Assembly (NCBI GenBank): GCA_035554435.1
Contig: DATMJC010000040.1
Span: forward strand, 42,222-106,221
Source of the DNA: Burkholderiales bacterium
GTDB lineage: Bacteria > Pseudomonadota > Gammaproteobacteria > Burkholderiales > SG8-39
DNA length: 64,000 bases
Direction of reading: 5' to 3'
In this document: in pieces, positions 2,413 to 43,796 of the stretch
How positions within the stretch are numbered: position 1 is the first letter of the stretch
Layout of the letters: every line of letters begins with the position of its first letter
Notes under the pieces: model-generated
The model's input: only the letters and a program-made list of their open reading frames with translations
What the model was told of the DNA's origin: nothing
Database searches by the model: none
Made by a program: the position numbers and the translations under genes

Positions 2413-3438
2413 TCAAGCGCTGAGCTTGGGTATCACCTCGCTCACGAAGAGCTCGAGAGAGCGCATCGCGTGCTCGGGAGCGAGGTCGCCGAAGGAGAAG
2501 ACGCACAGCAGGTAGTTGGCGCTCGTGACGCGCAACATGTCCTGCACCTTGTCGAGCACCGTGCGCGGCGAGCCGACGACCAGCGGCTGGGTGGAGTCGG
2601 GGGCGAAGGGCTCGGTCTTGTGCACATCGGGCCGGCCATGCCTGCGCGTGAGGTGGTGGATGTGACTCGCCCAGGTGGCATAGGCCTCGAGCCCCAGGCG
2701 CTCGGCTTCGGCGTCGGTCTCCGCGATTACCATGTGCTGGGTCTTCGCGAGGAACGGCTCGGCGACGTGCGCGTTGTGCCGGTCCGGATCGTCGCGGTGC
2801 TTTGCCCAAAGCTCGCGATAGCGGTCGAAGTGCGGCTTGCAGTCGGCGAGCTTGCCGAGGAACGCGGTGTGGTAGCCGTGGCGCGCCGTGAAATCGATCG
2901 ACTCGCGGTTCGAGCTCGGGAACCAGAGCGGCGGCCAGGGCTTCTGCACCGGCTTGTTGTAGAGCTCGACGTCTTGTCCGCGATAGTTGGCAAGATCTTG
3001 GGTGCAAAAGCGGAAAAACCAATCGAGTGCTTCCCGGTATTTCTCGCGCGACTCGTCGATGCTCTGCAGCCCGAAGATCTTCGATTCGATCGGCGAGACG
3101 CCGCGGCCGACGCCGAGCTCGAGGCGGCCGCCGGACATCTGGTCGAGCATGCAGATCTCGTTGTAGAGACGGTAGGGGTCGTACCACGGCAGGCAGAAGG
3201 TGAGGCCGCCCGCGCGCAGCTGCCGCGTGCGCTGGAACATCGCCGACAGCATGACGCTCGGCGAGCCGTCGATCGAGAGGGGCGTGCCCTGGTGCTCGGC
3301 GACCAGATAGGCGTGGAAGCCCGCGTTGTCGGCCGCCGCCGCGAGCTCGAGCTTGTGCCGATAGACCTCGCCCGGGCTGCGCCGCGAAGCCTCGATCCAG
3401 TCGAACAGGCCGAAGCGCAGCTTTTCGTTCAATTCCAC
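2413..3438 (-). CDS. LLM-class (luciferase-like) flavin-dependent monooxygenase/oxidoreductase
   Basis: This is the C-terminal 342 aa of the composite 2413..4515 ORF: (V)ELNEKLRFGLFDWIE...FHAYLVAEHQGTPLS...GGRLELGVGRG. The GTG start at 3438 overlaps the upstream stop (3429-3431) by 10 nt. Confidence 0.8.
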   Translation of the reverse strand: MELNEKLRFGLFDWIEASRRSPGEVYRHKLELAAAADNAGFHAYLVAEHQGTPLSIDGSPSVMLSAMFQRTRQLRAGGLTFCLPWYDPYRLYNEICMLDQMSGGRLELGVGRGVSPIESKIFGLQSIDESREKYREALDWFFRFCTQDLANYRGQDVELYNKPVQKPWPPLWFPSSNRESIDFTARHGYHTAFLGKLADCKPHFDRYRELWAKHRDDPDRHNAHVAEPFLAKTQHMVIAETDAEAERLGLEAYATWASHIHHLTRRHGRPDVHKTEPFAPDSTQPLVVGSPRTVLDKVQDMLRVTSANYLLCVFSFGDLAPEHAMRSLELFVSEVIPKLSA

Positions 3439-4574
3439 ACCTTGCGCGCGAGCTCGACCACGCGCTCGAGCTTCCTCTTCTGGTCGGCTTCGCTGACCAG
3501 GTTGCCGGCGACGTCGGAGCCGAACCCGCACTGCGGGCTGACGGCGAGGCTTTCGATCGGAATGTACTTCGTCGCCTCGTCGATTCTTCGCAGCAATTGA
3601 TCCAAAGGCTCCAGCGCGGGCACCTTGGTGCTGACGAGCCCCAGCACCACGATCTTGCCCTTGGGCACGAACCGGAGCGGCGCGAAGCTGCCGGCGCGCG
3701 GGCTGTCGTACTCGAGGAGGAAGCGCTGGTGCGGCAGCTCGTTGAACAGGCGCTCGGCGATGGCGTCGTAGCTGCCCTCGCGGTGCCACATGCTGCGCTG
3801 GTTGCCGCGGCAAAGATGGATGCCGAAGGTGACGCCAGGAAATCCCTCGACCACGCGCGCGTTGGCCCGAAGGGAGCGCGAGAAGCTCTGCTGCGGATCT
3901 TCGCCGCGCTTGCGCATTGCCTCGAGCGAAGGCTCGTCCACATAGGCGGTGTAGCCGGGCTCGTCGATGTGGACGTAGCGGCAACCCGCTTCGGCGAGCT
4001 GCCGGATCATGTGTCTTTGAATCGCCACCACATCTTCGGCGAAATCGTCCACGCTCGGGTATACCGCCCTCGAGTTGGCATGGTCGAAGCGCTGCAGCAC
4101 GCGGTCCGGTCCGATCAGCGAGACCTTGAGCGGCTTTTTCGCCAGCGGCAGGGCGCGCTCGAATTCTTCCAGCGGAACGTTTCTCTCGAGCTTCAGCCGG
4201 CGCGACACCGGGCGCCGGTGTACCACCGGCGTGCCCGCGCCGGCGACGTCGGGCATGTCGAAGCGCGCGAGCGGCGTGCCCGCGGCCGCGCGGCCCTCGT
4301 GCTGGGCGAGGCCCTCGGCTCCGCTCTCGTAGCCGGAGACGGCGAGACCGAAGCTGTCCTGGAAATTGAGCCGCCCGACCTCGCCGTCGGTCACGACGTC
4401 GAGACCGATGCTTTCCTGCAGCGCAAGATTCTCGCGCATGCACTCGAGCTCGATCCGCGCGAAATCCGTTCCCGACAGCGAGCCTTGCTCCATTCTGGCG
4501 CGGGCGGCTTTCCACGCCTGCGGCCGCAGCAGGCTGCCGACCACGTCGGTGCGGATGCGATCGAGCTCAGTCAT
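3429..4574 (-). CDS. cobalamin-independent methionine synthase II (MetE C-terminal / UROD-like) family protein
   Basis: MTELDRIRTDVVGSLLRP N-terminus. Zn-ligand-like motifs IHLCRGN and VSPQCGFG. The start at 4574 overlaps the upstream stop by 8 nt. Confidence 0.8.
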   Translation of the reverse strand: MTELDRIRTDVVGSLLRPQAWKAARARMEQGSLSGTDFARIELECMRENLALQESIGLDVVTDGEVGRLNFQDSFGLAVSGYESGAEGLAQHEGRAAAGTPLARFDMPDVAGAGTPVVHRRPVSRRLKLERNVPLEEFERALPLAKKPLKVSLIGPDRVLQRFDHANSRAVYPSVDDFAEDVVAIQRHMIRQLAEAGCRYVHIDEPGYTAYVDEPSLEAMRKRGEDPQQSFSRSLRANARVVEGFPGVTFGIHLCRGNQRSMWHREGSYDAIAERLFNELPHQRFLLEYDSPRAGSFAPLRFVPKGKIVVLGLVSTKVPALEPLDQLLRRIDEATKYIPIESLAVSPQCGFGSDVAGNLVSEADQKRKLERVVELARKVWN

Positions 4575-5496
4575 GCTTGACGCCGGCGCTTTTCGCCGCG
4601 GCACTGTAGCGCTCCAGATCCTCTTTCACGAAGCGCACATAGTCCTCGGTGCCGTTCTCCCTCAGCTCCATCGCCAGGTTTGCCATGCGCTCGGCGACGT
4701 CGCGCTCGCGCAGCGCCTTCGCCACCGCCGTCTGCAGCCGCGCCACTACTTCGCGCGGCGTTCCGGCCGGCGCTTGCAGTCCGATGACGGTCGCGATGTC
4801 GAAGCCGGGATATCCGAGCTCGGCGGCGGTGGGCACGTCGGGGAGCGTGCTGGAGCGCTGGGCAGTGCTGATCGCGTAAACCTTGAGCTTGCCCGCGCGA
4901 ATGTGGGCGAGCACGTTCGGAATCCCGGACCAGCCCGACTGCACCTCGCCCGAAAGGACGGCTGCGACGAGCGCAGTGCCGCCCTTATAAGGGACATGGA
5001 GCATGTCCAGGCCGGCGCGCGAAGCGAATACCGCCATGGTGAGGTGGTGCACCGAGCCGTTTCCTGCCGAGCCATAGCTGAATTTCCCAGGCTGACCCTT
5101 CGCGAGGAAAACGAAGTCCTGCAGGGAAGCGGCGGGCACGGAGGGGTTCGCAACCAGAACTGTCGGCACCGCGGCAAGCGCGGTGATCAGCGTGAAGTCC
5201 TTGAGCGGGTGATAAGGAACCTTGGGATTCAAGGCGACGTTGATCGCCATGGCGCCGGAGTCGCCCAGCATCAGCACGTAGCCGTCCGGCGCGGAGCGGG
5301 CGACGGCCTCCGCGGCGACCACGCCGCCGGCGCCGGGGACGTTTTCCACCACGAACGGGCGTCCGAAGCTCTCCGCGAGCTTCGCCGCCAGCATGCGCGC
5401 GAGCACGTCGGGATTGCCGCCCGGCGCCGCCGCGGCGATGAGGCGCACGGATTTGGCGGGGTAATCCTGCGCGCTCGCCGCCTGCGCAAGAAGCAA
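4567..5496 (-). CDS. Bug family tripartite tricarboxylate transporter substrate-binding protein (TctC-like)
   Basis: YPAKSVRLI..PGG..D..AR, GSAGNGSVHHL and VPYKGG motifs typical of Bug/TctC. The true start is probably upstream at 5523 (see finding), because the TTG at 5496 leaves no signal peptide. Confidence 0.85.
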   Translation of the reverse strand: MLLAQAASAQDYPAKSVRLIAAAAPGGNPDVLARMLAAKLAESFGRPFVVENVPGAGGVVAAEAVARSAPDGYVLMLGDSGAMAINVALNPKVPYHPLKDFTLITALAAVPTVLVANPSVPAASLQDFVFLAKGQPGKFSYGSAGNGSVHHLTMAVFASRAGLDMLHVPYKGGTALVAAVLSGEVQSGWSGIPNVLAHIRAGKLKVYAISTAQRSSTLPDVPTAAELGYPGFDIATVIGLQAPAGTPREVVARLQTAVAKALRERDVAERMANLAMELRENGTEDYVRFVKEDLERYSAAAKSAGVKHD

Positions 5497-5532
5497 AAGG
5501 ACGAAAGCGATGAGCTTGATGATCTTGGCCTC

Positions 5533-6249
5533 CTACACGCCCAGGTACCGATGCCAGAGGCCGCGGTCGGCGTCAAGCTCGGCCGAGGCTCCGTGCCAGG
5601 CGACGCGGCCGCGCTCGATGATGGTGTGGCGGTCGGCGAGCTTCACCAGGCGCTCGATGTACTTGTCGATGACGAGGATGGTCTGGCCCTCGCCGCGCAG
5701 CCGCTCGAGGCAGCGCCAGATCTCCTCGCGCACCAGCGGCGCCAGCCCTTCGGTCGCCTCGTCCAGGATCAGGAGGTGGGGATTGGTCACCAGCGCGCGG
5801 CCGATGGCGAGCATCTGCTGCTCGCCGCCGGAGAGCTGGTTTCCCATGTTGTCCTGCCTTTCATTCAGCCTGGGGAAGAGCTCCAGCACCCGCGCGGGGG
5901 TCCAGGGAGCGGGGCGGCCGCTGCGGTTCGCCGCGAAGGCGGCCAGGTTCTCGCGCACCGACAGGTTGGGAAAGATCTGACGGCCTTCCGGCACCAGCGC
6001 GATTCCCATGCGCGCGATGCGGTCCGGCGCGGCGCGCTCGATGCGCTCGCCGCGGAAGGAGATCGATCCAGCGCGCGTGCGGGTGAGGCCCATGATCGAG
6101 CGGATCGCGGTGGTCTTGCCCATGCCGTTGCGCCCGAGCAGCGACACCGCCTCGCCTTGGTTTACGCGCAGAGAGAATCCGAACAGGACCTGGCTCGCGC
6201 CGTACGCAGTCTCGAGCTCGCGCACCTCAAGCAGCAAGCTCGTCTCCAA
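5533..6249 (-). CDS. branched-chain-amino-acid-type (HAAT family) ABC transporter ATP-binding protein, LivF-like
   Basis: Walker A GRNGMGKTT, signature LSGGEQQML, Walker B LLILDEAT. Confidence 0.9.
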   Translation of the reverse strand: METSLLLEVRELETAYGASQVLFGFSLRVNQGEAVSLLGRNGMGKTTAIRSIMGLTRTRAGSISFRGERIERAAPDRIARMGIALVPEGRQIFPNLSVRENLAAFAANRSGRPAPWTPARVLELFPRLNERQDNMGNQLSGGEQQMLAIGRALVTNPHLLILDEATEGLAPLVREEIWRCLERLRGEGQTILVIDKYIERLVKLADRHTIIERGRVAWHGASAELDADRGLWHRYLGV

Positions 6250-6970
6250 GATAGGCGCGGCGCACGTCCTTGTCGGCGCGGATCTCGGCCGGTCTGCCGC
6301 TTGCGATGACCCGGCCGTTCACCAGCACGGTGATCCGGTCGGCGAGGCGGAAGACCGCGTCCATGTCGTGCTCGACCAGCAGCACCGTCACGCCGCCGCG
6401 GAGCCGGCCGATGAGCGCGATCATGCGCTGCGATTCCTCCGGGCCCATCCCGGCCATTGGCTCGTCAAGCAGCACGAGCCGCGGCTGCGTGGCGAGCGCA
6501 AGTCCGACTTCCAGCGCACGCTGTTCGCCGTGGGCCAAGGTGGAGGCGAGCGCTTCGACCTTCTCCGCAAGGCCGACGCGAGCGGCAAGGCCGCGGGCCT
6601 CGTCGAACAGCGCGCGTTCCGCGGCGACTGGACGCCAGAACGAGAAGCTCGAGCCGCGGCGCGCCTGCACCGCGAGCGCCAGGTTGTCGAGTACGCTGAA
6701 GCGCCTGAAGATGCTGGTGATCTGGTGGCTGCGGGCGAGACCCAGCCTCACCCGCTCGTACGGTTTCGCCTTCGTGATATCGCGTCCCTGGAAGCTGATC
6801 TGGCCTTCGTCGCTCGATACGCTGCCCGAAATCTGGCTGACCAGCGTGGTCTTGCCGGCGCCGTTGGGTCCGATCATCGCATGCACCTCGCCCGGCGCAA
6901 CGTCGAGGTTGACTCGATCCACCGCCACCACGCCACCGAAGCGCTTACTGAGGTTTCTTAGCGAAAGCAC
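6227..6970 (-). CDS. HAAT family ABC transporter ATP-binding protein, LivG-like
   Basis: Start trimmed to GTG giving (M)LSLRNLSKRFGGVVAV. Walker A GPNGAGKTT; LLDEPMAGM. It overlaps the permease stop upstream and the LivF-like start downstream. Confidence 0.9.
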   Translation of the reverse strand: MLSLRNLSKRFGGVVAVDRVNLDVAPGEVHAMIGPNGAGKTTLVSQISGSVSSDEGQISFQGRDITKAKPYERVRLGLARSHQITSIFRRFSVLDNLALAVQARRGSSFSFWRPVAAERALFDEARGLAARVGLAEKVEALASTLAHGEQRALEVGLALATQPRLVLLDEPMAGMGPEESQRMIALIGRLRGGVTVLLVEHDMDAVFRLADRITVLVNGRVIASGRPAEIRADKDVRRAYLGDELAA

Positions 6971-7883
6971 CGGCAATTCCTCGGGGCGCGAAAAGCACCA
7001 CCGCGAGCAGGATGGCGCCGACCGGCAGCTGCCAGTGCAAGGCAAAGGGGCCGAGCAGGGGACTTCCTGAGAACAACTCCTCCAGCAAGAGCAACACCGC
7101 GGCCCCGACCGGGCCGCCCCAGAAGCGGCCGACGCCGCCGAGGATCACCATCACCATCAGCGTGCCCGACTGCACCCAGTGGAGCAGCGCCGGACCGACG
7201 TAGCTGGTCTGGTTGGCGATCAGCGCGCCCGCCAGCCCGGCGATGGCGCCGGAAATGACGAAGCACACGAGCTTGTAGCGGTACACGGGGTAGCCTATCG
7301 CGGTGGCGCGTGTCTCGTTCTCGCGGATCGCCTCGATGACGCGTCCGAACCGCGCGTGCACCAGCCGATGCAGCAGATAGAGCACCGCCGCGAGCAGCGC
7401 GAGCACGAGGTAGTACCACACGAAGTCGTTCGACAGGCTGACGCCGAACCCGGGGGTCGAGCGCGCCGCCAGCGGCAGGCCGTCGTCGCCGCCGTAGGCC
7501 TTCATCGATATGAAGATGTAGTACATCATTTGCGCGAACGCCAGGGTGATCATGATGAAGTACACGCCGCGCGTGCGCAGCGATATCGCCCCGATGACGA
7601 GCGCGGCGAGCGCCGCGACCGCGATCGCGGCGGGCCAGACGAGCCACACGCTGGTGACGCCCTCGACCGCGAGGATGCCGACGATGTACGCACCGGCGCC
7701 GAAGAATGCGGCATGGCCGAAGCTCACCATTCCGCCGTAGCCGAGCACCAGGTTCAGGCTCGCCGCGGCCATCGCGTAGATCAGGATGCGGGTGGCGAAG
7801 CTGATGTAGAAGCCCTGGTCGATGGCCTGCATCGCCAGCGGAAACAGGCAGACGAGGACCGCGATGGCGACGAGCTTCTTCAT
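6945..7883 (-). CDS. HAAT family ABC transporter permease, LivM-like
   Basis: Real gene is MKKLVAIAVLVCLFPLAMQ... (313 aa) within the composite 6945..8333 ORF. ATGA overlap with the upstream permease at 7880-7883. Confidence 0.85.
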   Translation of the reverse strand: MKKLVAIAVLVCLFPLAMQAIDQGFYISFATRILIYAMAAASLNLVLGYGGMVSFGHAAFFGAGAYIVGILAVEGVTSVWLVWPAAIAVAALAALVIGAISLRTRGVYFIMITLAFAQMMYYIFISMKAYGGDDGLPLAARSTPGFGVSLSNDFVWYYLVLALLAAVLYLLHRLVHARFGRVIEAIRENETRATAIGYPVYRYKLVCFVISGAIAGLAGALIANQTSYVGPALLHWVQSGTLMVMVILGGVGRFWGGPVGAAVLLLLEELFSGSPLLGPFALHWQLPVGAILLAVVLFAPRGIAGAFAKKPQ

Positions 7884-8746
7884 CCTCGCGCCGGAAACAG
7901 GCCCTGCGGGCGGAAGAACAGCACCGCGGCCATGAGCACGTAGATCAGGATCGAGGAGAGCGATGGCCCGAGGTTGGACGCTGCCTGCGGCGAGAACATC
8001 TTCGCGAATGCGATCGGCAGCAACGCGCGCCCCATGGTGTCGACCGCGCCGACCAGAAGCGCGCCGACGAACGCACCGCGGATCGAGCCGATGCCGCCGA
8101 TGACGATGACGACGAAGGCGAGGATCAGGATGTTCTCGCCCATGCCGACCTGCACCGCGAGGATCGGCCCGAGCATGGCGCCGGCAAGCGCGCACAGGGC
8201 CGCGCCCAGGGCGAACACCGCAGTGAAAAGACTGCGGATGTTCACTCCCATGGCGAGCGCCATCTCGCGGTTCGAGGCGCCGGCGCGCACCAGCATTCCG
8301 ATCTTCGTCTTGGTGACCAGGACGTAAAGGCAAATGGCGACGGCGACGCCCACGCCGATGATCGCCAGCCTGTAGGACGCATACTGCACGCCACCCGGAA
8401 GCCGGACCGGGCCGGTCAGCGCGGCGGGCGCATTCAGCATCAGCGACTGCGCGCCCCAGACGATGCGCACCGCCTCATTGGCGATCATGATCACCGCGAA
8501 CGTGGCGAGCACCTGTGTGAGGTGGTCTCGCTCATAGAGGTTTCTCAACAGAACGACTTCCAGGACGGCGCCGACCAGGGCCGTGGCGATGAGCGCGAGC
8601 GGCAGGGCGGCCCAGAACGAGCCGGTGGCCTGCGCAAGCGTCGCCATCAGATACGCGCCGATCATGTAGAGCGAGCCGTGCGCCAGGTTGATCATGTCCA
8701 TGATGCCGAACACGAGCGTCAATCCGGCAGCGAGCAGGAACAGCAT
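7880..8746 (-). CDS. HAAT family ABC transporter permease, LivH-like (N-terminus probably extends to 8800)
   Basis: GLTLVFGIMDMINLAHGSLYMIGAY is the conserved LivH block. The family-typical N-terminal helix (FFEQGLNSLQFG) lies upstream of the ATG, with only CTG codons available. Confidence 0.85.
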   Translation of the reverse strand: MLFLLAAGLTLVFGIMDMINLAHGSLYMIGAYLMATLAQATGSFWAALPLALIATALVGAVLEVVLLRNLYERDHLTQVLATFAVIMIANEAVRIVWGAQSLMLNAPAALTGPVRLPGGVQYASYRLAIIGVGVAVAICLYVLVTKTKIGMLVRAGASNREMALAMGVNIRSLFTAVFALGAALCALAGAMLGPILAVQVGMGENILILAFVVIVIGGIGSIRGAFVGALLVGAVDTMGRALLPIAFAKMFSPQAASNLGPSLSSILIYVLMAAVLFFRPQGLFPARG

Positions 8747-8813: not shown

Positions 8814-9980
8814 TCACTTCATGTCGCAGTCTTTGGCCCAGTAGTCTCCGAGGCCGGTGACCGCCGTGCCGACCTTCTTGTTGACCAGGCGGCCCTGCTT
8901 GTCCTTGGCCACCACGCGCACGTAGTAGTCCTGCACCGGGGTGCCGTTGTGCGCCATCTTGATCTCGCCGCGCGGTGACTTGAAGCGCGTCGGCGCGCTC
9001 ATCAGCGCCTGGTGGAAGGCCTTCTCGTCCTCGATCTTGCCTTTCACCGTGCGCACCGCGGCATCGATGAAGAGCGCAGTGGTGTATCCCTGCTCGGCGA
9101 AGAGCGACGGCACGCGCTTGTACTCCTTCTCGAACTCGGCGACGAATTTGCGGTTGGCGTCGTTGTCGAGGTCGTAGGCCCAGTGCGAGGTGTCGAAGAT
9201 GCCGAGCATCGGCTCGCCGACGGCGCGGATGATGTCCTGGTCGTCGGCGAACCCGGGCACCACCAGCGGGATCTCGGCGGAGAGGCCGCCGGCCACGAAC
9301 TGCTTGATGAAGTTGATGCCCATTCCGCCCGGCAGGAACGCGTACAGCGCCGCCGGCTTGGCGGCGCGGATCTGGGCGAGCTCCGCCGAGTAGTCGAGCT
9401 GGTTCAGCTTGGTGTACACCTCGGCCGAGATGGTGCCGCCGTAGCCGCGCTTGAACCCGGTAGTCGCGTCCTTGCCCGCGGGATAGTTGGGCGCGATCAG
9501 GTACACGTTCTGGAAGCCCTTCGACTTGGCATACAGCCCGGCTGCCTCGTGGTGCCCCTCGTTCGGCCAGGCGGCGGACACGAAGTGCGGATTGCAGCCT
9601 TTGCCGGTGATGCTGGTCGGCGTCGAGTTCGGCGCGATATAGAACACCTTGCCCTCCTGGATCGTCGGCCACGCCGCCAGCATCACGTTGGAGAAGATGA
9701 CGCCGGTCATCAGGTTGACGCGGTCGCGCTTCAGCAAACGCTCGGCGAGCTGCTTGCCGGTCTCGGGGTTGAGCGTGTCGTCGGCGAAGACCACCTCGGT
9801 CGGCAGCCCGCCGAGCTTGCCGCCCGCCAGCTTCAGCGCGAGGTTGAAGCCGTCGCGGACTTCGACGCCGATCGCGCCGGCGGGGCCGGACAGCGTCGAC
9901 AGGTAGCCGATCTTCAGCTCGTTGGCGGCATGCGCATCGAACGCAAATAAGAGAATTGCTAAAGAAAGGATTCTTCTCAC
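8814..9980 (-). CDS. ABC transporter substrate-binding protein, LivK/Leu-Ile-Val-binding (type I periplasmic binding) family
   Basis: Signal peptide MRRILSLAILLFAFDAHA, then LKIGYLSTLSGPAGAIG. The GTG start overlaps the upstream stop (GTGA at 9977-9980) and is preceded by GAGGAGGAG. Confidence 0.85.
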   Translation of the reverse strand: MRRILSLAILLFAFDAHAANELKIGYLSTLSGPAGAIGVEVRDGFNLALKLAGGKLGGLPTEVVFADDTLNPETGKQLAERLLKRDRVNLMTGVIFSNVMLAAWPTIQEGKVFYIAPNSTPTSITGKGCNPHFVSAAWPNEGHHEAAGLYAKSKGFQNVYLIAPNYPAGKDATTGFKRGYGGTISAEVYTKLNQLDYSAELAQIRAAKPAALYAFLPGGMGINFIKQFVAGGLSAEIPLVVPGFADDQDIIRAVGEPMLGIFDTSHWAYDLDNDANRKFVAEFEKEYKRVPSLFAEQGYTTALFIDAAVRTVKGKIEDEKAFHQALMSAPTRFKSPRGEIKMAHNGTPVQDYYVRVVAKDKQGRLVNKKVGTAVTGLGDYWAKDCDMK

Positions 9981-10927
9981 GGGTCGCTCCTCCTCGATCT
10001 CATTCTACCAATCCAGCGGATCTGGCGTTGATAGGGCGGGGAAGGCTCGGCCATCGCGGCGAGGCGCGCCTCCTTCTCGCGCGTGCTCTCGGGAATCGAG
10101 TCGAGCGCGTCCTTCAGCATCGGCTCGTAGTCCGCGCCCACCGGGCAGACGTCGGCGCAGCGCCGGCAGCCGGTGATCACGCCCGCGCCGCGCAGGATGC
10201 TCTGCCAGAGGTTAAAGCTGTCCTCCGAGCGCAGCATCGCTTTCTTCTGCTTCGCGTCGGGCTCGTCGATCACGCGTCCGAGGTAGTCGGTGAGCTGCGC
10301 GAAGCCGTGCGGCGAGCGGTAGGTGTCGCACGCCTCCCAGTCGCGGTCCCACTGCCGGATCACATCGCCCGGGCAGGCCTTCAGGCAGCGGCCGCATTCC
10401 GGTCCGAGGCAGAGCGCCTCGCTCATCGGCCGGTCGCACTCGACGTCCACCGAGCAGAGCACCGCGGTGAGGATGACGCGCGGTCCGAATTCCCTCGTCA
10501 AGAGTTGCAGATTGAGCCCGAGCGTGCCGAGGCCCGCCTCCACCGCCGCGTGCGGCAGCGAAATCAGCGTGCTTTGGTGCCTCGCGGGGTCACCCTGATA
10601 GCGCCAAGGGTCGACGTGCGTCGGCGGCACGATGATCGCCGGATAGCCCGCGTCCTCCAGCCAGTACACCAGCTCGAGCGACACCTCCTCGAGGAAGGTG
10701 AGCGAGAGCTCATCGTTGTAGTACTTGTTGCGATCGTTCCACCTGGGTATGCGGGAGCTCCCTGCCTGCACGCGCGTCGCCATGACGATCACCCGGCCGC
10801 CGTCGTGCTCGGTGATATGGCTCGTGTCCACGTTCTTGCCGTCGGCGATACCGACCAAGTCCGCGCCAAGCTCACGCGCTTTTTCCTTTATCTGAAGAGA
10901 AGTCAAAGGACGCTTGAAGACGTTCAC
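9977..10927 (-). CDS. QueG/RdhA-superfamily 4Fe-4S protein (epoxyqueuosine-reductase-like), paralog B
   Basis: This is the last 316 aa of the composite 9977..12097 ORF, with a GTG start overlapping the paralog A stop (GTGA, 10924-10927). Motifs: ARELGADLVGIA, EAGLGTLGLN, LTREFGPR, CLGPECGRCLKACP, GCRRCADVCPVG. Confidence 0.75.
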   Translation of the reverse strand: MNVFKRPLTSLQIKEKARELGADLVGIADGKNVDTSHITEHDGGRVIVMATRVQAGSSRIPRWNDRNKYYNDELSLTFLEEVSLELVYWLEDAGYPAIIVPPTHVDPWRYQGDPARHQSTLISLPHAAVEAGLGTLGLNLQLLTREFGPRVILTAVLCSVDVECDRPMSEALCLGPECGRCLKACPGDVIRQWDRDWEACDTYRSPHGFAQLTDYLGRVIDEPDAKQKKAMLRSEDSFNLWQSILRGAGVITGCRRCADVCPVGADYEPMLKDALDSIPESTREKEARLAAMAEPSPPYQRQIRWIGRMRSRRSDP

Positions 10928-11970
10928 TGTTTCTCTTTCTCCTTCTGCAGCCGCTTGAACTCCTGCAGCTGGCGCGCCACGATCCCCTGGTAGCCCTTCT
11001 CTCCGACCCAGCGGATGTTCCATTCGGACAGGCCCGGAAGCTCGTGCCCTTCCTTGCGCGCCTTCTTGAACTCCGCGGCCCTGGCGACTTTCTCCGGCGT
11101 CTTCTCGGGAATGTGCTTCTGGATGTCGGCGAGGTGCGCGTGGTAGTCGTTGCCGACCGGGCACACCGCGAGGCAGCGCGGGCAGTCGCCGAAGGAGCCG
11201 ACCACGCGCAGCAGGCCCTGCCAGAAACCGAAGAGATCGCGCGAACGAATTGCCTTTTTCTGCTCTTCGCTGGACATATCGATGAACCGGCTCATGAAGT
11301 TGGTGATCGTCATGTAGCCGAACTCCTGCGCTTCGGTAGCGCAGCCCGGCTTGTCGAGTCCCCACTGCTTGACCGCATCGGGCGGGCAGGAGTGGAGGCA
11401 CCGGCTGCACGACTCGCCTATGCACACCTGCTCCTCCATGCGCCGGTCCGCCTCGAGCTCGAGCTCGGTAAGAATCCCGGTAAGGTAGAGGCGCGGGCCG
11501 AACTCGGGGGTGAGGATGTTCACCTCCAGCCCGAGCGTGCCGAGGCCCGCCTCGACGCCGAGGTGTCGGGTCGAGAGCTGCCCGTAGCTCGCACGCTTCA
11601 GGTTCCAGTCGGTTTCCTGCGCCGCGAGCGTGAACGAGGGATGACCGGCGCGCTCGAGCTCCTGAGCGAGCTTGAGGGCGATGCGGTCCATGCGCCGCAG
11701 CACCAGCATGTCGAGGTACTGGACCGGAACGTTGGTCTTGCAGCGGAACGCGCCCACCGGGATGCGCTGGACGATGACCACCACGCTCTTGATGTACGGC
11801 GAGATGCGCTCCGGCGTCTGCGGCCAGCGTGGATCGGGCGGAAAGGCGTTGAGCGTCGCGGCCGAGGCGATGCCGCAAAGGTCGGCGCCCAATTCCTTTG
11901 CGCGGCGCTTGACTTCGTTTGAAGTGACCGGAGAAGCCAGCACCGTCCCGCGTCGAAGGGTCCGTGACAT
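10924..11970 (-). CDS. QueG/RdhA-superfamily 4Fe-4S protein (epoxyqueuosine-reductase-like), paralog A
   Basis: AKELGADLCGIA, EAGLGTLGLE, LTPEFGPR, CIGESCSRCLHSCP and DCPRCLAVCPVG. These align by eye to the QueG core (ERAGIGF...TPEYGS...C..C..C...CP...C..C...CP). Confidence 0.75.
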   Translation of the reverse strand: MSRTLRRGTVLASPVTSNEVKRRAKELGADLCGIASAATLNAFPPDPRWPQTPERISPYIKSVVVIVQRIPVGAFRCKTNVPVQYLDMLVLRRMDRIALKLAQELERAGHPSFTLAAQETDWNLKRASYGQLSTRHLGVEAGLGTLGLEVNILTPEFGPRLYLTGILTELELEADRRMEEQVCIGESCSRCLHSCPPDAVKQWGLDKPGCATEAQEFGYMTITNFMSRFIDMSSEEQKKAIRSRDLFGFWQGLLRVVGSFGDCPRCLAVCPVGNDYHAHLADIQKHIPEKTPEKVARAAEFKKARKEGHELPGLSEWNIRWVGEKGYQGIVARQLQEFKRLQKEKEKQ

Positions 11971-11973
11971 ACG

Positions 11974-11987
11974 CTACCGTATGGTAG
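11974..11987. promoter_or_regulatory. candidate TetR operator: inverted repeat CTACC-GTAT-GGTAG in the 26-bp divergent gap
   Basis: A perfect 5+5 inverted repeat with a 4-nt spacer is read directly at 11974-11987. It is the only symmetric element between the start codons at 11970 (-) and 11997 (+). Confidence 0.35.
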
Positions 11988-11996
11988 TCTTTCCCG

Positions 11997-12533
11997 GTGC
12001 GATCGCAATGGCTCGGCGCCGGGCTGGACGCGCTGCGCAAGGGCGGCGTCGGCGCGGTGCGCGTCGAGCGCCTCGCCGCCGACGTAGGCGTCACCAAGGG
12101 CAGCTTCTATCACCACTTCCGCGACCGCGGCGCGCTGCTCGAAGCGCTGCTGGAATTCTGGTCGCGCGAGATGACCGACGCCGAGTTCGAGCGCATCCAG
12201 AGCTTGCGCGGCGGCGACACAGGAGGGGAACTGCGCGCGCGCCTGCTGGCACTCGCCGAGGACGTTCTGGAGAAGGGCATGGGCCGCTACGATCCGGCGA
12301 TCCGCGCCTGGGGGCGCAGCGACCGCAAGGTGGCGGCTGCGGTCGCGCAGGTCGACCGCCGGCGCGTGCGCGCGCTGACGGCGCTGTTCGAGGAAGGCGG
12401 ATTCGGCGCTGCCCAGGCGCGCACCCGCGCACGGACCTTCTATACGTTCCTGCTCGGCGAGCCGCAGGTGCGCGCACCGGTGCGCGAGGCCGGAGAACTC
12501 GCGCGGATGGTCGAGATTCTGGCTCGGCCCTGA
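11997..12533 (+). CDS. TetR/AcrR family transcriptional regulator
   Basis: HTH region VRVERLAADVGVTKGSFYHHFRDRGALLEALLE is the classic TetR N-terminal signature. Confidence 0.85.
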   Translation: MRSQWLGAGLDALRKGGVGAVRVERLAADVGVTKGSFYHHFRDRGALLEALLEFWSREMTDAEFERIQSLRGGDTGGELRARLLALAEDVLEKGMGRYDPAIRAWGRSDRKVAAAVAQVDRRRVRALTALFEEGGFGAAQARTRARTFYTFLLGEPQVRAPVREAGELARMVEILARP

Positions 12534-13835
12534 ATGCCCCTGAGACTCCCCAAGTCGCGCGCCGAGATCCGCCGCCTCCAGAGCGAACGCAAGCGTGCTG
12601 CGGTGGAGCGGGCGACGCGTTCGCCGTTCTGGAAGAAACGGCTTCCCAGCGTAAACCTTGAAAAGCTGGACGACCCGGAGGTGTGGCGGAAGATTCCCAT
12701 CCTCGACAAGGACACGCTGCGCGGGCTGTCGGATGCGCAGTTCTACGGCGAGTTCTGCCACGCGGAGCACGACGGCATCGCCGAGTACTGGCGCTCGGGC
12801 GGCGTCACCGGCCAGCCGCTCTTCTACCCGCGCAGCTTCCGAGACATCGAGGTTGGCCTCGAGTCCTTCGCGCGCACCTTCGACTGCGCCGGGGCCGGCC
12901 GCGGCGAGCGTGCCCACATCTCCTTCCCGCTGGGCATCCACCCGGTCGGCCAGATCTACTTGCGCTGCGCCACTTCGCGCGGCATCACGGTCAACTGGGC
13001 GGGCGCCGGCACGTCGACCCCCTCGCCCCTGCAACTGGAGCTGATCCGGCGCCTGAAGCCGACCATCTGGCTCGGCATGTCGAGCTACGCGCTGCATCTC
13101 GCGAATCTCGCGGAGGCACGCGGCGTTGAGCTGAATTCAATAAAGAAGATCATGACCTCCGCCGAGCCGGTGTCGCAGGCAAAACGAGACAAGATCGAGC
13201 GCAGCTTCGGTGCCAAGCTCACCGACAACTTCGGCATGACCGAGGCCGGCATGATGGGCAGCGAGTGGAAGGAAGATGAGTCCGGGCTTGGTTTCCGCAT
13301 CTGGACCGACCTCTACCTTATCGAGGTGCTGGATCCCAAGTCGCTGGACCCGGTGAAGGAGGGCGGGGTCGGTACCTTGGTGGTCACGGCGCTGCAGACG
13401 AACAACGTTACGCCTTTCCTGCGCTGGAGCTCGGGCGACCTCGTCACCTACGGCGAGGCGGATGATGAAAGGGATGGAAAAAAGGCAGGCCCGTTCTCCG
13501 TGTTCCCGCGCATCAAGCACGCGCACCGCACCGCGGGCTTCTTCAAGGTGCGCGGCGTCAACCTCGGCCACCAGGACCTCGAGGACTTCATGTTCCGCCA
13601 CGTCGAGATCGGCGACTTTCGCGCCGAGGTGCTGAACGAGGGCGGCAACGACATCCTGCGGCTTTCGATCGAGATCCGTCGCGGCGCGGACCGGGAATCC
13701 TTTGCCAACGCCCTTTCCGGGAAGATCAAGGCCGCGTTCGAGCTCGCGCCTCAGGTGGTGGTGCTGGAAACCGGAACGCTCGCCAGGGAATTCGAGGCCA
13801 ACGTCAAGGCGGTGCGGTTCGTAGACCGCCGTTAA
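12534..13835 (+). CDS. phenylacetate-CoA ligase (PaaK)-like / coenzyme F390 synthetase family adenylate-forming enzyme
   Basis: IPILDKDTLR, WRSGGVTGQPLFYP (equivalent to SSGTTGKP), MSSYALHLA, MTSAEPVS, NFGMTEAG, FKVRGVNL. The start abuts the TetR stop (TGA ATG). Confidence 0.75.
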   Translation: MPLRLPKSRAEIRRLQSERKRAAVERATRSPFWKKRLPSVNLEKLDDPEVWRKIPILDKDTLRGLSDAQFYGEFCHAEHDGIAEYWRSGGVTGQPLFYPRSFRDIEVGLESFARTFDCAGAGRGERAHISFPLGIHPVGQIYLRCATSRGITVNWAGAGTSTPSPLQLELIRRLKPTIWLGMSSYALHLANLAEARGVELNSIKKIMTSAEPVSQAKRDKIERSFGAKLTDNFGMTEAGMMGSEWKEDESGLGFRIWTDLYLIEVLDPKSLDPVKEGGVGTLVVTALQTNNVTPFLRWSSGDLVTYGEADDERDGKKAGPFSVFPRIKHAHRTAGFFKVRGVNLGHQDLEDFMFRHVEIGDFRAEVLNEGGNDILRLSIEIRRGADRESFANALSGKIKAAFELAPQVVVLETGTLAREFEANVKAVRFVDRR

Positions 13836-19787: not shown

Positions 19788-22583
19788 ATGGTAGCGGTTG
19801 AACGACTCGGCGTAGCGCTCGGCTCCGCGATTGCGGGCGAGGTTCGCTTCGATGATGCGGCGCGTGCAGCGTACGCGTCCGACGCTTCGAACTATCGGCA
19901 GGTGCCGGTCGGCGTGGTTCTGCCGCGCAGCCCCGAGGATGTCGTCGCAGCGGTCGCGCTCTGCCGCGCGCACGATGCCGCGATCCTGCCGCGCGGCGCC
20001 GGCACCTCGATGTGCGGCCAGAGCGTCAACGCCGCCGTGGTCATCGACTGCTCGAAGTACCTCGACCGCGTGCTGGCGGTCGACCCGGTCGCGCGCACGG
20101 CGCGGGTCGAGCCGGGCGCGGTGTGCGACGCCCTTCGCGAGGCGGCGGAGGCGCATGCCCTCACGTTCGCTCCGGACCCGGCGACCCACTCGCGCTGCAC
20201 GCTCGGCGGCATGATCGGCAACAACTCCTGCGGCCCGCACTCCGTGATGGCGGGCAAGACGGTCGAGAACATCGAGCGCCTGGAGGTGCTGACCTACGAC
20301 GGCGCGCGCTTCTGGTGTGGTCCGACCGACGCTGTCGAAATGCAGCGCATCCTGTCGCTGGGCGGTCGACGGGCCGAGATCTATTCCGCGTTGCAGCGCA
20401 TCGCCCAAAAGTACGCTCCCTTGATCCGCAGCCGTTTCCCGCGGATCCGCCGGCGGGTCTCGGGATACAACCTGGACGAGCTGCTTCCGGAAAAAGGTTT
20501 CAATGTTGCGCGCGCTCTGGTCGGCTCGGAGGGCACCTGCGCGCTCACTCTGCAGGCCGAGGCGCGCCTGGTGAAAAGTCCGCGCCACCGCGTGCTCGTG
20601 GTGCGCGGCTTTCCCGACATCTTCGCCGCCGGCGACGCGGTGCCCGAGGTGCTCGCTGCCGCGCCGATCGCCTGCGAAGGCCTCGACGACGCCATCATCG
20701 GCGGCCTGCGCGAACGCGGGCTGCGACTGGCGGACATCGCGCTGCTGCCGCCCGGCAGGGGCTGGCTCATGGTCGAGTTCGGCGGCGACTCGATCGAGGA
20801 GGCGCTCGAAAAGGCGCGCGCGCTGCCGGGGCTCCTGGTGACCGACCCCGACCTCATGACGCGTCTGTGGACCATCCGCGAGACCGGCGCGTCGGCCACC
20901 GCGCTCAATCTCGCCGGCCGCGCGCCGGACCCGGTCATCGGTTGGGAGGACGCCGCCGTCGACCCGCTGCGCCTCGGCGCCTACCTGCGCGAGTTCAGCG
21001 GCCTGGTCGGGCGCTACGGTTATCGAACCTCGATCTACGGCCACTTCGGCGACGGCTGCGTCCACGCGCGCATCGACTTCGATCTGCGCAGCCACGAAGG
21101 CGTGGCCCACTGGCGCAGCTTCCTGCGCGAAGCCTCCGAGCTGGTCGTGAAGTACGGCGGCTCGCTCTCCGGCGAGCACGGCGACGGTCACGCGCGCGCG
21201 GAGTTCCTGCCGCTCATGTTCGGCGAGGAGCTGATGCAGGCGTTTCGCGAGTTCAAGGCCGCGTGGGATCCCTCGAAACGGATGAATCCTGGGAAGATCG
21301 TCGACGCGTTCCGGGTCGATGAGCATTTGCGCCTGGGGCCCCAATACAGGCCGGTCACGCTTGCCACGAAATTTTCGTTCGTTACGCCCGAGGGAAACGG
21401 CTTCGTGCGCGCGGTGGGGCACTGCGTTGGGATGGGGAAGTGCCGCGCGTCCAAGGGCGGCACCATGTGCCCGAGTTACCGCGGCACGCGCGAAGAGCGC
21501 TACTCGACCCGCGGCCGCGCGCGCCTGCTCGCCGAAATGCTGCGCGGCGAGCTCATCACGACCGGCTGGAAGAGCGAGGAAGTCAAAGAGGCGCTCGAGT
21601 GGTGCCTCGGGTGCAAGGGCTGCCGCAGCGACTGTCCGACGCACACCGACATGGCGGCCTACAAGGCCGAGTTCATGTCGCACTACTACGAGGGACGCAG
21701 GCGTCCGCGCCAGGCCTGGTCGATGGGACGCATCGGCGAGTGGGCGCCGCTCGCCTCGTCGGTGCCCTGGCTCGCCAATGCCGTTTCCAGCATGAGTCTT
21801 TCCAAACGTGTCGCGGGCGTGGCGGCCGCGCGCTCGCTGCCGAAGTTCGCCGCCCGGACGTTTCGCGCGGATTTCAAGTCGGGAAAGCGGGGCGAGCCCG
21901 CAGTGCTGTTCGACGATACGTTCAACAACCATTTTCGTCCGCAGACCGCCGCGGCGGCGCAGAAGGTGCTCGAGGCCGCGGGCTGCGCGGTGGAGCTGCC
22001 TCCCGAACACGTGTGCTGCGGCCGGCCGTACTACGACTTTGGCATGATCGAGCGCGCCAGGTCCGCGCTGGCGAGGGTCCTCGATACGCTCGCGCCGCAG
22101 CTCGAGCGGGGTCTTTCGGTCGTGGTGCTCGAGCCGGGATGCCTTTCCGTGTTCCGCGACGAGCTGCACCAGCTCTTCCGCGGCGATGCCCGCGCCGCGC
22201 GGCTCGCGACTGGCTTCGTCTCGCTGGGCGAGTTCTTGAACCGCAGGGGTTTCCGGGCCAACCTGCCAGGGAAGGTTCTGGCGCATGCGCACTGCCACCA
22301 GAAAGCGCTCTGGGGCAGCGGCGACGACGTGGAGCTCATGCGAAAGACCGGCGCCGAAGTGCTGTCGCCGGACACCGGCTGCTGCGGCATGTCGGGGTCG
22401 TTCGGCTACCGTCCCGAGTTCTATCAGACCTCGCGGCGGATCGCCGGGCTCGAGCTGCTGCCGGCGCTGCAGGCGGCAAGCGACGCGACGGTGGTGGCAA
22501 ACGGATTTTCCTGCCGCGAGCAGATCGAGGGCCTCGCCGCCAGGCCGACCCTGCATCTCGCCGAGCTCCTCGCCAGGGCATGA
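19788..22583 (+). CDS. FAD-binding (GlcD/D-lactate dehydrogenase-like) and Fe-S/CCG-domain fusion oxidoreductase (YdiJ-like)
   Basis: N-terminal PCMH-type FAD domain (ILPRGAGTSMCGQS); central CxxCxxCxxxCP (CLGCKGCRSDCP); C-terminal cysteine-rich CCG-type repeats (HVCCGRPY, TGCCGMSGSFG). Confidence 0.85.
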   Translation: MVAVERLGVALGSAIAGEVRFDDAARAAYASDASNYRQVPVGVVLPRSPEDVVAAVALCRAHDAAILPRGAGTSMCGQSVNAAVVIDCSKYLDRVLAVDPVARTARVEPGAVCDALREAAEAHALTFAPDPATHSRCTLGGMIGNNSCGPHSVMAGKTVENIERLEVLTYDGARFWCGPTDAVEMQRILSLGGRRAEIYSALQRIAQKYAPLIRSRFPRIRRRVSGYNLDELLPEKGFNVARALVGSEGTCALTLQAEARLVKSPRHRVLVVRGFPDIFAAGDAVPEVLAAAPIACEGLDDAIIGGLRERGLRLADIALLPPGRGWLMVEFGGDSIEEALEKARALPGLLVTDPDLMTRLWTIRETGASATALNLAGRAPDPVIGWEDAAVDPLRLGAYLREFSGLVGRYGYRTSIYGHFGDGCVHARIDFDLRSHEGVAHWRSFLREASELVVKYGGSLSGEHGDGHARAEFLPLMFGEELMQAFREFKAAWDPSKRMNPGKIVDAFRVDEHLRLGPQYRPVTLATKFSFVTPEGNGFVRAVGHCVGMGKCRASKGGTMCPSYRGTREERYSTRGRARLLAEMLRGELITTGWKSEEVKEALEWCLGCKGCRSDCPTHTDMAAYKAEFMSHYYEGRRRPRQAWSMGRIGEWAPLASSVPWLANAVSSMSLSKRVAGVAAARSLPKFAARTFRADFKSGKRGEPAVLFDDTFNNHFRPQTAAAAQKVLEAAGCAVELPPEHVCCGRPYYDFGMIERARSALARVLDTLAPQLERGLSVVVLEPGCLSVFRDELHQLFRGDARAARLATGFVSLGEFLNRRGFRANLPGKVLAHAHCHQKALWGSGDDVELMRKTGAEVLSPDTGCCGMSGSFGYRPEFYQTSRRIAGLELLPALQAASDATVVANGFSCREQIEGLAARPTLHLAELLARA

Positions 22584-39466: not shown

Positions 39467-39555
39467 TTTGCGGGATTTGCCGGGGTGCCGCCAGCCCGTT
39501 TCGGCCGGCTCGGCATAGCGCTTGCTCGCGGACCGGACTAACCAAGGAGGCGCGA

Positions 39556-40149: not shown

Positions 40150-40155
40150 GAGGCG

Positions 40156-40956: not shown

Positions 40957-40968
40957 GGGTGGGTTCTC

Positions 40969-43796
<2,828 letters not shown>

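Follow-up and report, generated by a model that had tools for sequence, protein, structure and literature searches.

A paired, ligase-associated branch of the QueG/RdhA fold, with a possible role in the catabolism of aromatic acids

Two adjacent genes in the window (the whole stretch of DNA analysed, 64 kb from a Burkholderiales bacterium) encode proteins, here A and B, which form a previously undescribed branch of the QueG/RdhA fold. We put the odds at slightly better than even, roughly 55%, that they constitute a cytoplasmic, heteromeric redox enzyme, a third branch of that fold, which would work with a partner ligase on an aromatic acyl-CoA. To our knowledge, the class III cobalamin fold has only two established functions, reductive dehalogenation and epoxyqueuosine reduction. 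Our search of the literature found no paper describing the A/B family, and the NCBI annotation of both proteins (HWI98773.1 for A, HWI98772.1 for B) is 'hypothetical protein'.

Gene A (10924-11970, minus strand, 348 aa, ATG start) and gene B (9977-10927, minus strand, 316 aa, GTG start) were recovered as open reading frames where the initial annotation had placed them. The stop codon of A and the start codon of B overlap in a GTGA (cagTGAacg and caGTGaacg, respectively), a coupling already reported and directly visible in the letters; a second GTGA joins the stop of B to the start of the gene for a periplasmic substrate-binding protein (SBP). The two products had also been said to align along their length. 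They do so with 37% identity over 324 residues in BLASTP, a likeness far beyond chance in view of its E value of 2e-66, and the shared blocks listed at the time were found again in A and B: KELGADLCGIA/RELGADLVGIA, EAGLGTLGLE/EAGLGTLGLN, LTPEFGPR/LTREFGPR, CIGESCSRCLHSCP/CLGPECGRCLKACP, CPRCLAVCPVG/CRRCADVCPVG and IRWVG/IRWIG. B is a paralog of A, with identical domain order and the same eight cysteines: an N-terminal domain of QueG/RdhA fold precedes a 2x[4Fe-4S] ferredoxin domain, which in A holds a long helical insert (about 65 aa), and the C-terminal tails, of about 70 residues in A and 45 in B, are family-specific helices.

That the core of the pair is of the QueG/RdhA superfamily, as first suggested, is borne out by profile and fold searches, which match only QueG, RdhA and then CblC. 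When the AF2 model of A (pLDDT 91, pTM 0.89) was compared with the PDB using Foldseek, the top 46 matches were all QueG or RdhA (PceA, NpRdhA), with E values from 9e-11 to 5e-8; the next were CblC, a B12-processing enzyme, not FMN nitroreductases. The profile of the A/B family matches the RdhA 8q4h (E 1.2e-27), Bacillus subtilis (Bs) QueG (1.1e-24), PceA (1.7e-21) and NpRdhA (6e-16), with hhalign probabilities of 99.7% and 99.6% over the cofactor and ferredoxin domains; in Pfam, A and B match ferredoxin motifs only. The segment that they have most in common with QueG and RdhA is AVEAGLGxxGxNxxLxTPEFGPR. Eight cysteines (C183, C188, C191, C195, C210, C263, C266 and C270, numbered as in A) do not vary among the homologs of A and B, and in the wider family they are either invariant or reach a conservation of at least 90%; their spacing, C-x4-C-x2-C-x3-CP ... 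C ... C-x2-C-x3-CP, is the split two-[4Fe-4S] pattern described for QueG (PMC5175355, PMC4646009). By the model of A and the profile matches, A and B belong to the class III cobalamin (QueG/RdhA) fold, in which a 2x[4Fe-4S] ferredoxin domain comes after a nitroreductase-like one. Conserved sequence begins so early, with a first strand at about residue 20 in A and the core at residue 8 in B, that a signal peptide would not fit, and both proteins are predicted to be cytoplasmic; no Tat signal peptide is present in either.

At 90% identity, homologs form more than 2,000 clusters for A and as many again, more than 2,000, for B. A relative is present in at least 424 scanned species genomes, and the exact A sequence recurs on 64 contigs. 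All carriers found are uncultured MAGs, the hosts being aerobic soil and marine organisms. Among 80 loci, identity of A remains at 69-89% across classes, with residues 120-160 nearly invariant (59 sequences). B lies directly downstream of A in 73 of these loci, and in 67 of them, from MAGs of three or more classes of Proteobacteria (Alpha-, Beta- and Gammaproteobacteria), A and B occur together with a PaaK-like adenylate-forming ligase, whose gene mostly follows B directly and in the same orientation; in another locus (L081) the ligase adjoins a fused A-B gene. A, B and the ligase are a conserved triad, and the ligase, not the transporter, is the real conserved partner of the pair. The triad has no gene for an electron donor as a conserved companion. 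Neighbours at other loci comprise a benzoate-CoA ligase family protein, an enoyl-CoA hydratase, an acyl-CoA dehydrogenase, a Rieske oxygenase of the benzoate/anthranilate type, an OYE-type reductase and a CoA-transferase.

In the window, the ligase gene (HWI98775.1; 12534-13835, plus strand; 433 aa; Pfam AMP-binding and AMP-binding_C_2) is divergent from A and B, behind a TetR gene; its standing as their conserved partner had been overlooked in the initial annotation. The best PDB match of the protein is PaaK 4r1l (E 6.5e-29). It aligns over its full length with the PaaK models TIGR02155 and NF041878, at 120.3 and 140.1 bits against equivalog cut-offs of 646 and 700 bits, and because these scores fall so far short, the identification of the ligase as a PaaK ortholog was ruled out.

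The claim that A and B head an operon stands: they are succeeded on the minus strand, with genes overlapping or only narrowly spaced, by those for SBP, LivH, LivM, LivG and LivF and then for a TctC-type receptor, a short MetE-like protein and a luciferase-like monooxygenase. The SBP (8814-9980, minus strand; Pfam Peripla_BP_6) is part of an ABC importer, whose Liv-type membrane/ATPase block spans 5533-8746 on the minus strand (LivH, 7880-8746; LivM, about 6945-7883; LivG, about 6227-6970; LivF, 5533-6249; all assigned from open reading frames, translation features and synteny). With homologs syntenic with A-B in 17-22 of the 80 loci, this transporter often accompanies the pair without being a fixed neighbour. 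The best solved relatives of the SBP are 4evq/4evr (E 7e-47), then 4ey3, 4evs and 4f06, which we take to be the binders of benzoate derivatives from R. palustris studied by Michalska et al. (2012). RPA0668 is a benzoate binder (PMC6079105). The closest kin of the SBP are benzoate-derivative binders, and the transporter is of the aromatic-acid type. The distal genes (2413-5496), identified with Pfam and NCBIfam, are accessory, without conservation alongside the triad: the TctC/Bug-type solute receptor (4567-5496), the short MetE-like protein (3429-4574) and the luciferase-like monooxygenase (about 2413-3420), all on the minus strand, are syntenic in three, eight and seven of the 80 loci, respectively. 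On the other side of A, a gene for a TetR-family regulator (11997-12533, plus strand; Pfam TetR_N) is divergent from it, with 26 bp separating the two start codons, and the same layout is found in loci L001-L005. A stem-loop search located a perfect 6+6 inverted repeat, CATACG-nnnn-CGTATG (11968-11983, assigned to neither strand), which overlaps the start codon of A; the motif ATACGnnnnCGTAT is kept at the equivalent position in L001-L005, and the repeat is likely to be the TetR operator.

The scenario that we favour would unfold as follows. The Liv-type ABC system would import a benzoate-type aromatic carboxylic acid, which the PaaK-like ligase would activate to a CoA thioester (or acyl-adenylate). 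A/B, drawing electrons from a general ferredoxin or flavodoxin, would then remove or rearrange a ring substituent (for instance a halide, hydroxyl or epoxide/oxygen function) in a two-electron reduction, and the product would enter ordinary CoA-dependent catabolism. The TetR repressor, bound at the palindrome over the start codon of A, probably controls expression. We infer the reaction type and the CoA-thioester substrate, the substrate being a guess from gene context. A bolder version, which we hold only tentatively and rate as unlikely, would make A/B and the ligase the founders of a class of class III cobalamin enzymes with a third function. This would be a B12/[4Fe-4S] reductase, heteromeric (alpha-beta or fused) and tolerant of oxygen, that is widespread among aerobic soil and marine Proteobacteria; activation of the carboxyl group by the ligase, at the expense of ATP, would enable an aromatic acyl-CoA to lose a substituent other than a halogen in a cob(I)alamin-mediated reduction. 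Dehydroxylation, demethoxylation or de-epoxidation may serve as examples; we know of no B12 enzyme to which such a removal is assigned at present.

Does the pair bind a corrinoid at all? Class III cobalamin enzymes have no cobalamin sequence motif (PMC4646009), which is why this cannot be read from A and B. By analogy with QueG and RdhA, each subunit would most probably carry a base-off corrinoid where its two-cluster wire ends. The rival that survives best, unlikely in our judgement, is that A and B are a corrinoid-free Fe-S pair, in which the N-terminal domain has lost cobalamin, or binds another cofactor or nothing, the pair serving either to carry electrons over its four clusters or to reduce or dehydrate the product of the ligase by means of Fe-S clusters only. 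It would account for the fact that Pfam sees ferredoxin motifs only and that, in the alignments, the Tyr, Asp and Arg with which QueG and RdhA catalyse their reactions have no conserved counterparts. The corrin-facing Tyr conserved in QueG, PceA and NpRdhA falls on L91 of A when taken from PceA (Y246) and on M88 when taken from QueG (Y105), and PceA R305 falls on Tyr162 of A and an Ile of B; identity being 17-21%, the Y246 and R305 alignments may be shifted by a few residues. The invariant Tyr85 and Asp87 of A are one helical turn away, Tyr85 preceding the aligned positions by 3-6 residues within that helix, and a further invariant residue, Tyr129, belongs to the loop that corresponds to the Asp134 loop of QueG. 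Also in keeping with a corrinoid-free pair, a search of the 64-kb window found no cobalamin riboswitch, and no gene for B12 uptake or synthesis was identified among the window genes scanned or the annotated recurrent neighbour clusters. Against it, conservation relative to QueG and RdhA is highest in the N-terminal cofactor domain, not in the ferredoxin part alone; this domain is very strongly constrained, as the near invariance of A 120-160 illustrates, and some 180 residues kept at 70-89% identity across classes are unlikely to be an empty scaffold. Furthermore, it is the B12-binding CblC that follows QueG and RdhA among the fold matches.

Another rival, which we consider improbable, holds that A/B are a divergent catabolic RdhA dehalogenating halobenzoates or their CoA esters; it does not contradict our favoured explanation, a reductive step on an aromatic acyl-CoA, but is a special case of it. 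The likeness to NpRdhA and PceA in fold and cofactor scaffold, the aromatic-acid-type transporter and the aerobic soil and marine hosts, which resemble those of catabolic RdhAs (PMC10463259), would all fit. A genuine RdhA (TIGR02486, 199.9 bits in locus L069) is even encoded about 6 kb upstream in seven alphaproteobacterial loci. On the same model, however, A scores 26.7 and B 35.9 bits for a subfamily cut-off of 160.35 bits, and the proton-transfer Tyr-Arg pair of RdhA is not aligned in A/B, so that their assignment to RdhA by family model was rejected. We know of no RdhA with an obligate ligase partner or paralogous hetero-oligomers, and the abundance of the family, together with the conservation of A in different classes, points to a substrate that is natural and common, not to rare organohalides. 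Neither an rdhB-like gene nor another small membrane-anchor gene is present among the conserved neighbours, and none separates A, B and SBP, the start and stop codons of which overlap.

As to the heteromer, the initial annotation had proposed either a heteromeric or a sequentially acting reductase with a non-tRNA substrate. The first proposal gains from natural A-B fusion proteins (P0241, 670 aa; P0242, 678 aa, on at least 24 contigs) that occur in two separate lineages and, in our tree, group with the A clade by their N-terminal half and with the B clade by their C-terminal half, from the B-type proteins forming their own clade, sister to that of A, both conserved, and from the synteny with a ligase and an aromatic-acid-type transporter. 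In distant relatives, two to three modules are arranged in tandem or fused. From such arrangements of sequence we infer that A and B would form a physical complex. The second proposal, that they are independent enzymes acting in sequence on related intermediates, is disfavoured by the fusions, and we give it little credence. Each of the two could be catalytic, since the set of cofactor ligands is complete and the pocket loops are conserved in either protein, and these loops differ between the A and B clades. Fusion in two lineages is compatible with sequential action, but it favours physical association; translational coupling through GTGA implies equal dosage of A and B, and multi-module fusions recur in the wider family.

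The idea that A/B are a duplicated true QueG acting on tRNA can be dismissed almost outright: most homologs bear the JGI/IMG label 'epoxyqueuosine reductase QueG' and TIGR00276 (QueG) is the best single NCBIfam match of both, but it scores 51.0 bits for A and 39.9 for B, over residues of about 128-210 only, against a curated equivalog cut-off of 200 bits, NCBI gives neither protein that name, and the pair shares its operon with a ligase and a transporter. The same conclusion, already drawn in the initial annotation, follows from the architecture. The hhalign alignment with QueG, at 99.7% probability, covers residues 14-279 of A and ends at QueG residue 258, ahead of the C-terminal HEAT-repeat tRNA-binding domain (Bs Leu257-Leu385; PMC5175355), and a Pfam search found neither a HEAT nor a DUF1730 domain in A or B. 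QueG relies on a catalytic Asp (Bs D134, St D130) and a DYH motif (PMC4646009, PMC5175355). The former is aligned with Ser128 in A and a Gln in B, the latter with D87-M88-L89 in A and D-E-L in B, where the Asp alone is retained, and in the phylogeny that had been called for, QueG branches outside the A/B family.

The authors of the QueG structure anticipated further uncharacterised families combining B12 and [4Fe-4S], hidden because no sequence motif betrays them (Payne et al.; PMC4646009). A/B are a concrete and abundant candidate for such a family, directly testable by co-expression since the gene set is defined (A, B, ligase, transporter, repressor and operator). If they depend on B12, they would add a new cobamide-requiring catabolic step in aerobic bacteria of soil and ocean. 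The 'QueG' label in IMG is, for these homologs, a systematic mis-annotation that could inflate queuosine-pathway and B12-dependence calls in metagenomes.

Among known systems, NpRdhA (4RAS, 6ZXX) and JtRdhA share fold and cofactor scaffold with A/B and are likewise cytoplasmic, from aerobic proteobacteria, with aromatic acids as substrates or context, whereas the active-site Tyr/Lys/Arg of NpRdhA have no aligned equivalents in A/B. NpRdhA-type enzymes act on free halophenolic acids and are not known to need a ligase. Each consists of one polypeptide, to which a reductase module is fused in some of them (PMC10463259). With PceA (4UQU) and the RDH complex 8Q4H, the best profile match, A/B have the AGLG...TPEFGPR core in common; respiratory RdhAs are exported by Tat and membrane-associated via RdhB, PceA being a homodimer (PMC4646009). 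The partner ligase shares domain architecture and fold family with PaaK, whose structures are its best PDB matches. QueG (5D08 and 5T8Y from B. subtilis, 5D6S from S. thermophilus), the best Foldseek match of A (E 9e-11), is cytoplasmic too and has the same cofactor and 2x[4Fe-4S] domains with split cysteines. Yet it is a monomer encoded by a single gene, whereas A and B are paired paralogs, sometimes fused, with a longer ferredoxin insert (about 65 aa) and a genomic context of ligase and transporter.

Proteins A and B have the fold of epoxyqueuosine reductase (QueG) and of reductive dehalogenases (RdhA), as the initial annotation had proposed for their core. A first AlphaFold model of A, with 31 close homologs in the alignment, reached a pLDDT of 56 and was discarded; with 58 diverse family members, 50%-cluster representatives having been added, pLDDT rose to 91 with a pTM of 0.89. 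When this model is compared with the PDB using Foldseek, all 46 matches at E <= 0.001 are QueG, PceA/RDH-complex RdhA or NpRdhA (E 9e-11 to 5e-8, TM about 0.45-0.49, identity 14-21%). The family profile agrees, matching RdhA 8q4h (E 1.2e-27), BsQueG (1.1e-24), PceA (1.7e-21) and NpRdhA (6e-16). These values are comparable for QueG and RdhA, which places the A/B family at about the same distance from each of these two known branches. A and B share eight invariant cysteines with the topology found in QueG (four in C-x4-C-x2-C-x3-CP, a single isolated one, then C-x2-C-x3-CP), and these serve as ligands of two [4Fe-4S] clusters. Conservation with QueG and RdhA is highest in AVEAGLGxxGxNxxLxTPEFGPR, a segment of the cofactor domain. 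Both subunits are under strong constraint, the top residue at a position having a mean frequency of 0.81 in A (59 sequences) and 0.755 in B (41 sequences).

In NCBI records A and B each appear as 'hypothetical protein'; IMG labels them QueG. They are neither QueG orthologs nor members of the RdhA family. Against the QueG equivalog model TIGR00276 (NCBIfam), A scores 51 bits and B 40 bits for a cut-off of 200, and against the reductive dehalogenase model TIGR02486, 27 and 36 bits for a cut-off of 160. In a profile alignment (hhalign), A residues 14-279 match QueG residues 4-258, ending ahead of the HEAT-repeat tRNA-binding domain (domain limits in PMC5175355). Catalytic Asp134 of QueG is replaced by Ser in A and Gln in B, while the Asp alone of the QueG DYH motif is retained in both. 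Likewise, the position of PceA Tyr246 is occupied by Leu91 in A and Leu in B, and that of PceA Arg305 by Tyr162 in A and Ile in B (roles of these residues in PMC4646009). In a rough neighbour-joining tree drawn without bootstrap, A-type and B-type proteins are sister clades within a larger family, with QueG and RdhA outside; the loop ahead of the AGLG motif is near-invariant inside each clade and different between the two. The suspicion that this is no genuine queG is thus borne out. As for a characterised ferredoxin-like family, Pfam gives weak ferredoxin motifs only, on a fold that is that of QueG and RdhA. A tblastn search of a plasmid collection with A retrieved distant QueG, RdhA and SCP2-fused relatives only, and zero orthologs. 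Some of these plasmid proteins (H2-H4 and H6, from Nostoc and Priestia megaterium), annotated 'SCP2 sterol-binding domain-containing protein', match A residues ~90-290 with about 25% identity; they may represent another offshoot of the fold, fused to a lipid-binding domain.

The two genes are tightly coupled on the minus strand. Gene A, from 11970 to 10924, starts with ATG and codes for 348 residues; gene B, from 10927 to 9977, starts with GTG and codes for 316. The GTG start of B overlaps the TGA stop of A, as seen in AAACAGTGAACG, forming the GTGA overlap previously proposed, and a second GTGA overlap joins the stop of B to the start of the next gene, seen in CCGTGAGAAG. The products align along their length (BLASTP, 37% identity over 324 residues, E = 2e-66), and all the shared blocks quoted by the initial annotation are found in the translations. 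That annotation also suggested a heteromeric reductase, a reading favoured by naturally occurring fusions. Among 1.84 billion cluster representatives, searched exhaustively, 1,703 clusters match at E <= 1e-3, and the two best matches (P0241, 670 residues, and P0242, 678 residues) each join an A-type N half and a B-type C half in one polypeptide. Both are real genes, P0242 being carried by at least 24 contigs, and in the tree without bootstrap the N halves group with the A clade and the C halves with the B clade. Distant family members are also multi-module: three tandem paralogs (L089:73-2961), a single-module gene beside a double-module gene (L091:5299-7413), P0329, and two proteins of 760 and 793 residues (P0337 and P0383) that look like triple-module fusions from reading their sequences. 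Paralogous hetero-oligomers therefore appear as a hallmark of the A/B branch, and we infer that A and B form a physical complex. The distant members at L091 are accompanied by a TctABC transporter, a beta-lactamase-fold protein and an aminotransferase, with no ligase pairing.

As delimited by codon-position GC with Pfam and NCBIfam scans, the pair does head a transport operon on the minus strand, its genes connected via overlaps or short gaps: A, B, a substrate-binding protein (SBP; Peripla_BP_6, 8814-9980), LivH, LivM, LivG, LivF, a TctC-type receptor, a short MetE-like protein and a luciferase-like monooxygenase. The start codon of the TctC-type receptor (4567-5532, minus) is tentative since a signal-peptide-like stretch, KIIKLIAFVLLLLAQAASA, begins upstream of the first ATG/GTG/TTG of its ORF; only 36 bp separate this start from the LivF stop. 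Divergent from A are a TetR regulator gene (11997-12533) and, beside it, a gene for a PaaK-like AMP-binding ligase (12534-13835). The start codons of A and TetR are only 26 bp apart, and this gap holds a perfect inverted repeat, CATACG-CTAC-CGTATG (11968-11983), which takes in the ATG of A. Its core, ATACGnnnnCGTAT, is kept in L001-L005, the five other loci where these genes are arranged in this way, and this repeat with its CATACGnnnnCGTATG palindrome is likely to be the TetR operator. A sigma-70 promoter scan gave no match, an uninformative result at 65-70% GC. Farther along the window lie genes for a molybdopterin hydroxylase large subunit (902 residues, xanthine/CO-dehydrogenase family), a MoxR-type AAA ATPase, a CoxE-like VWA protein and malonyl-CoA decarboxylase (35618-43677, minus), as well as a 931-residue fusion of FAD-linked oxidase (GlcD-like), 4Fe-4S dicluster and CCG cysteine-rich domains (GlpC/HdrD-like; 19788-22583, plus).

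What travels with the pair is revealing. Scanning one genome per species uncovered at least 424 loci, and tblastn of the window proteins over the best 80, where A is 69-89% identical, scored the recurrence of neighbours. B is present in 73 of these loci and the ligase in 67, commonly directly after B on the same strand, while many loci without it are contigs ending shortly after A or B. The SBP recurs in 28, Liv components in 17-22, the MetE-like protein in 8 and the luciferase-like monooxygenase in 7. The conserved unit is therefore a triad, A, B and ligase, with the transporter as a common add-on. A fused A-B gene (L081) also adjoins the ligase, at 43.6% identity. The best PDB match of the ligase is PaaK-like 4r1l (E 6.5e-29), but it scores 120-140 bits against PaaK-model cut-offs of 646-700, so that it is PaaK-like in fold and not a PaaK ortholog. 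The best 80 loci are all from metagenome-assembled genomes of Burkholderiales, diverse Alphaproteobacteria (soil and marine) and one Chromatiales; among them and in the plasmid collection no cultured carrier was identified. The idea that the ligase is an ATP-driven corrinoid activase was set aside: to our knowledge, corrinoid activases belong to a different fold family.

The substrate class is suggested by the transporter and the neighbours. The closest solved relatives of the SBP are 4evq/4evr, 4ey3, 4evs and 4f06 (E 7e-47 to 4e-35), which we take to be the benzoate-derivative binding proteins of Rhodopseudomonas palustris, reportedly the subject of work by Michalska et al. in 2012. PDB 4EVQ is presumably RPA0668. 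RPA0668 binds benzoate (PMC6079105). Clustered without bias, neighbours in other loci include a benzoate-CoA ligase family protein (14 loci, often directly upstream of A), enoyl-CoA hydratase (13), a Rieske benzoate/anthranilate-type oxygenase subunit (9), an OYE-type reductase (7), acyl-CoA dehydrogenase (6) and family III CoA-transferase (6); this set of genes is typical of the CoA-dependent breakdown of aromatic or alicyclic acids. Neither A nor B has a signal peptide, consistent with a cytoplasmic CoA-thioester substrate. Xanthine-dehydrogenase-type neighbours (9 loci) were dismissed as a link to a 4-hydroxybenzoyl-CoA-reductase-like enzyme, since they are accompanied by XdhC, lie about 7 kb from the pair and are confined to one lineage. 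In one alphaproteobacterial lineage, a genuine RdhA homolog is encoded some 6 kb upstream of the triad (L041, L043, L054, L055, L068, L069 and L073), with an amidohydrolase, a CoA-transferase and an enoyl-CoA hydratase in between; that of L069 (4999-6336, 445 residues) scores 199.9 bits against the TIGR02486 cut-off of 160.35.

We propose that a benzoate-type acid is imported and adenylated by the dedicated ligase at the cost of ATP, probably yielding a CoA thioester, on which the A/B heteromer would perform a two-electron reductive step. By analogy with QueG and RdhA, the two clusters would relay electrons to a corrinoid, and the candidate leaving group would be a halide, a hydroxyl or an epoxide oxygen, which are precedents or their nearest extrapolations. 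That A and B bind a corrinoid is itself drawn from this analogy, and the indications are mixed. In its favour, conservation peaks in the cofactor domain, and the second-best fold, next in Foldseek after QueG and RdhA, is that of the B12-processing enzyme CblC, not of FMN nitroreductases. By contrast, the class-conserved Tyr has no aligned counterpart, although invariant Y85, Y129 and Y162 are nearby, nothing recognised as related to B12 is among the window genes scanned or the recurrent neighbour clusters annotated, and Rfam detects neither a cobalamin riboswitch nor any other RNA family in the window. Short 'core' MetE proteins can take methylcobalamin as methyl donor. The MetE-like gene of the window (3429-4574, minus; Meth_synt_2, about 380-390 residues, NF005085 242 bits, below the cut-off of 313), with counterparts near A-B in eight other loci (L009, L020, L033, L034, L036, L039, L067 and L080), sometimes directly adjacent, may thus be a second corrinoid link.

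Payne et al. predicted that there would be more unrecognised families combining B12 with [4Fe-4S] clusters (PMC4646009). We found no model for the A/B family in Pfam or NCBIfam, nor any description of it in the literature on QueG-like proteins and new class III families. The fold and the cofactor scheme are already known; the heteromeric architecture and the conserved ligase partner are new. So is, probably, a non-tRNA substrate, as initially proposed and in line with the ligase and with an alignment devoid of the HEAT domain, and possibly a non-halide one. QueG is monomeric (PMC5175355) and PceA homodimeric (PMC4646009), whereas the A/B branch is built of paralogous pairs, some of them fused.
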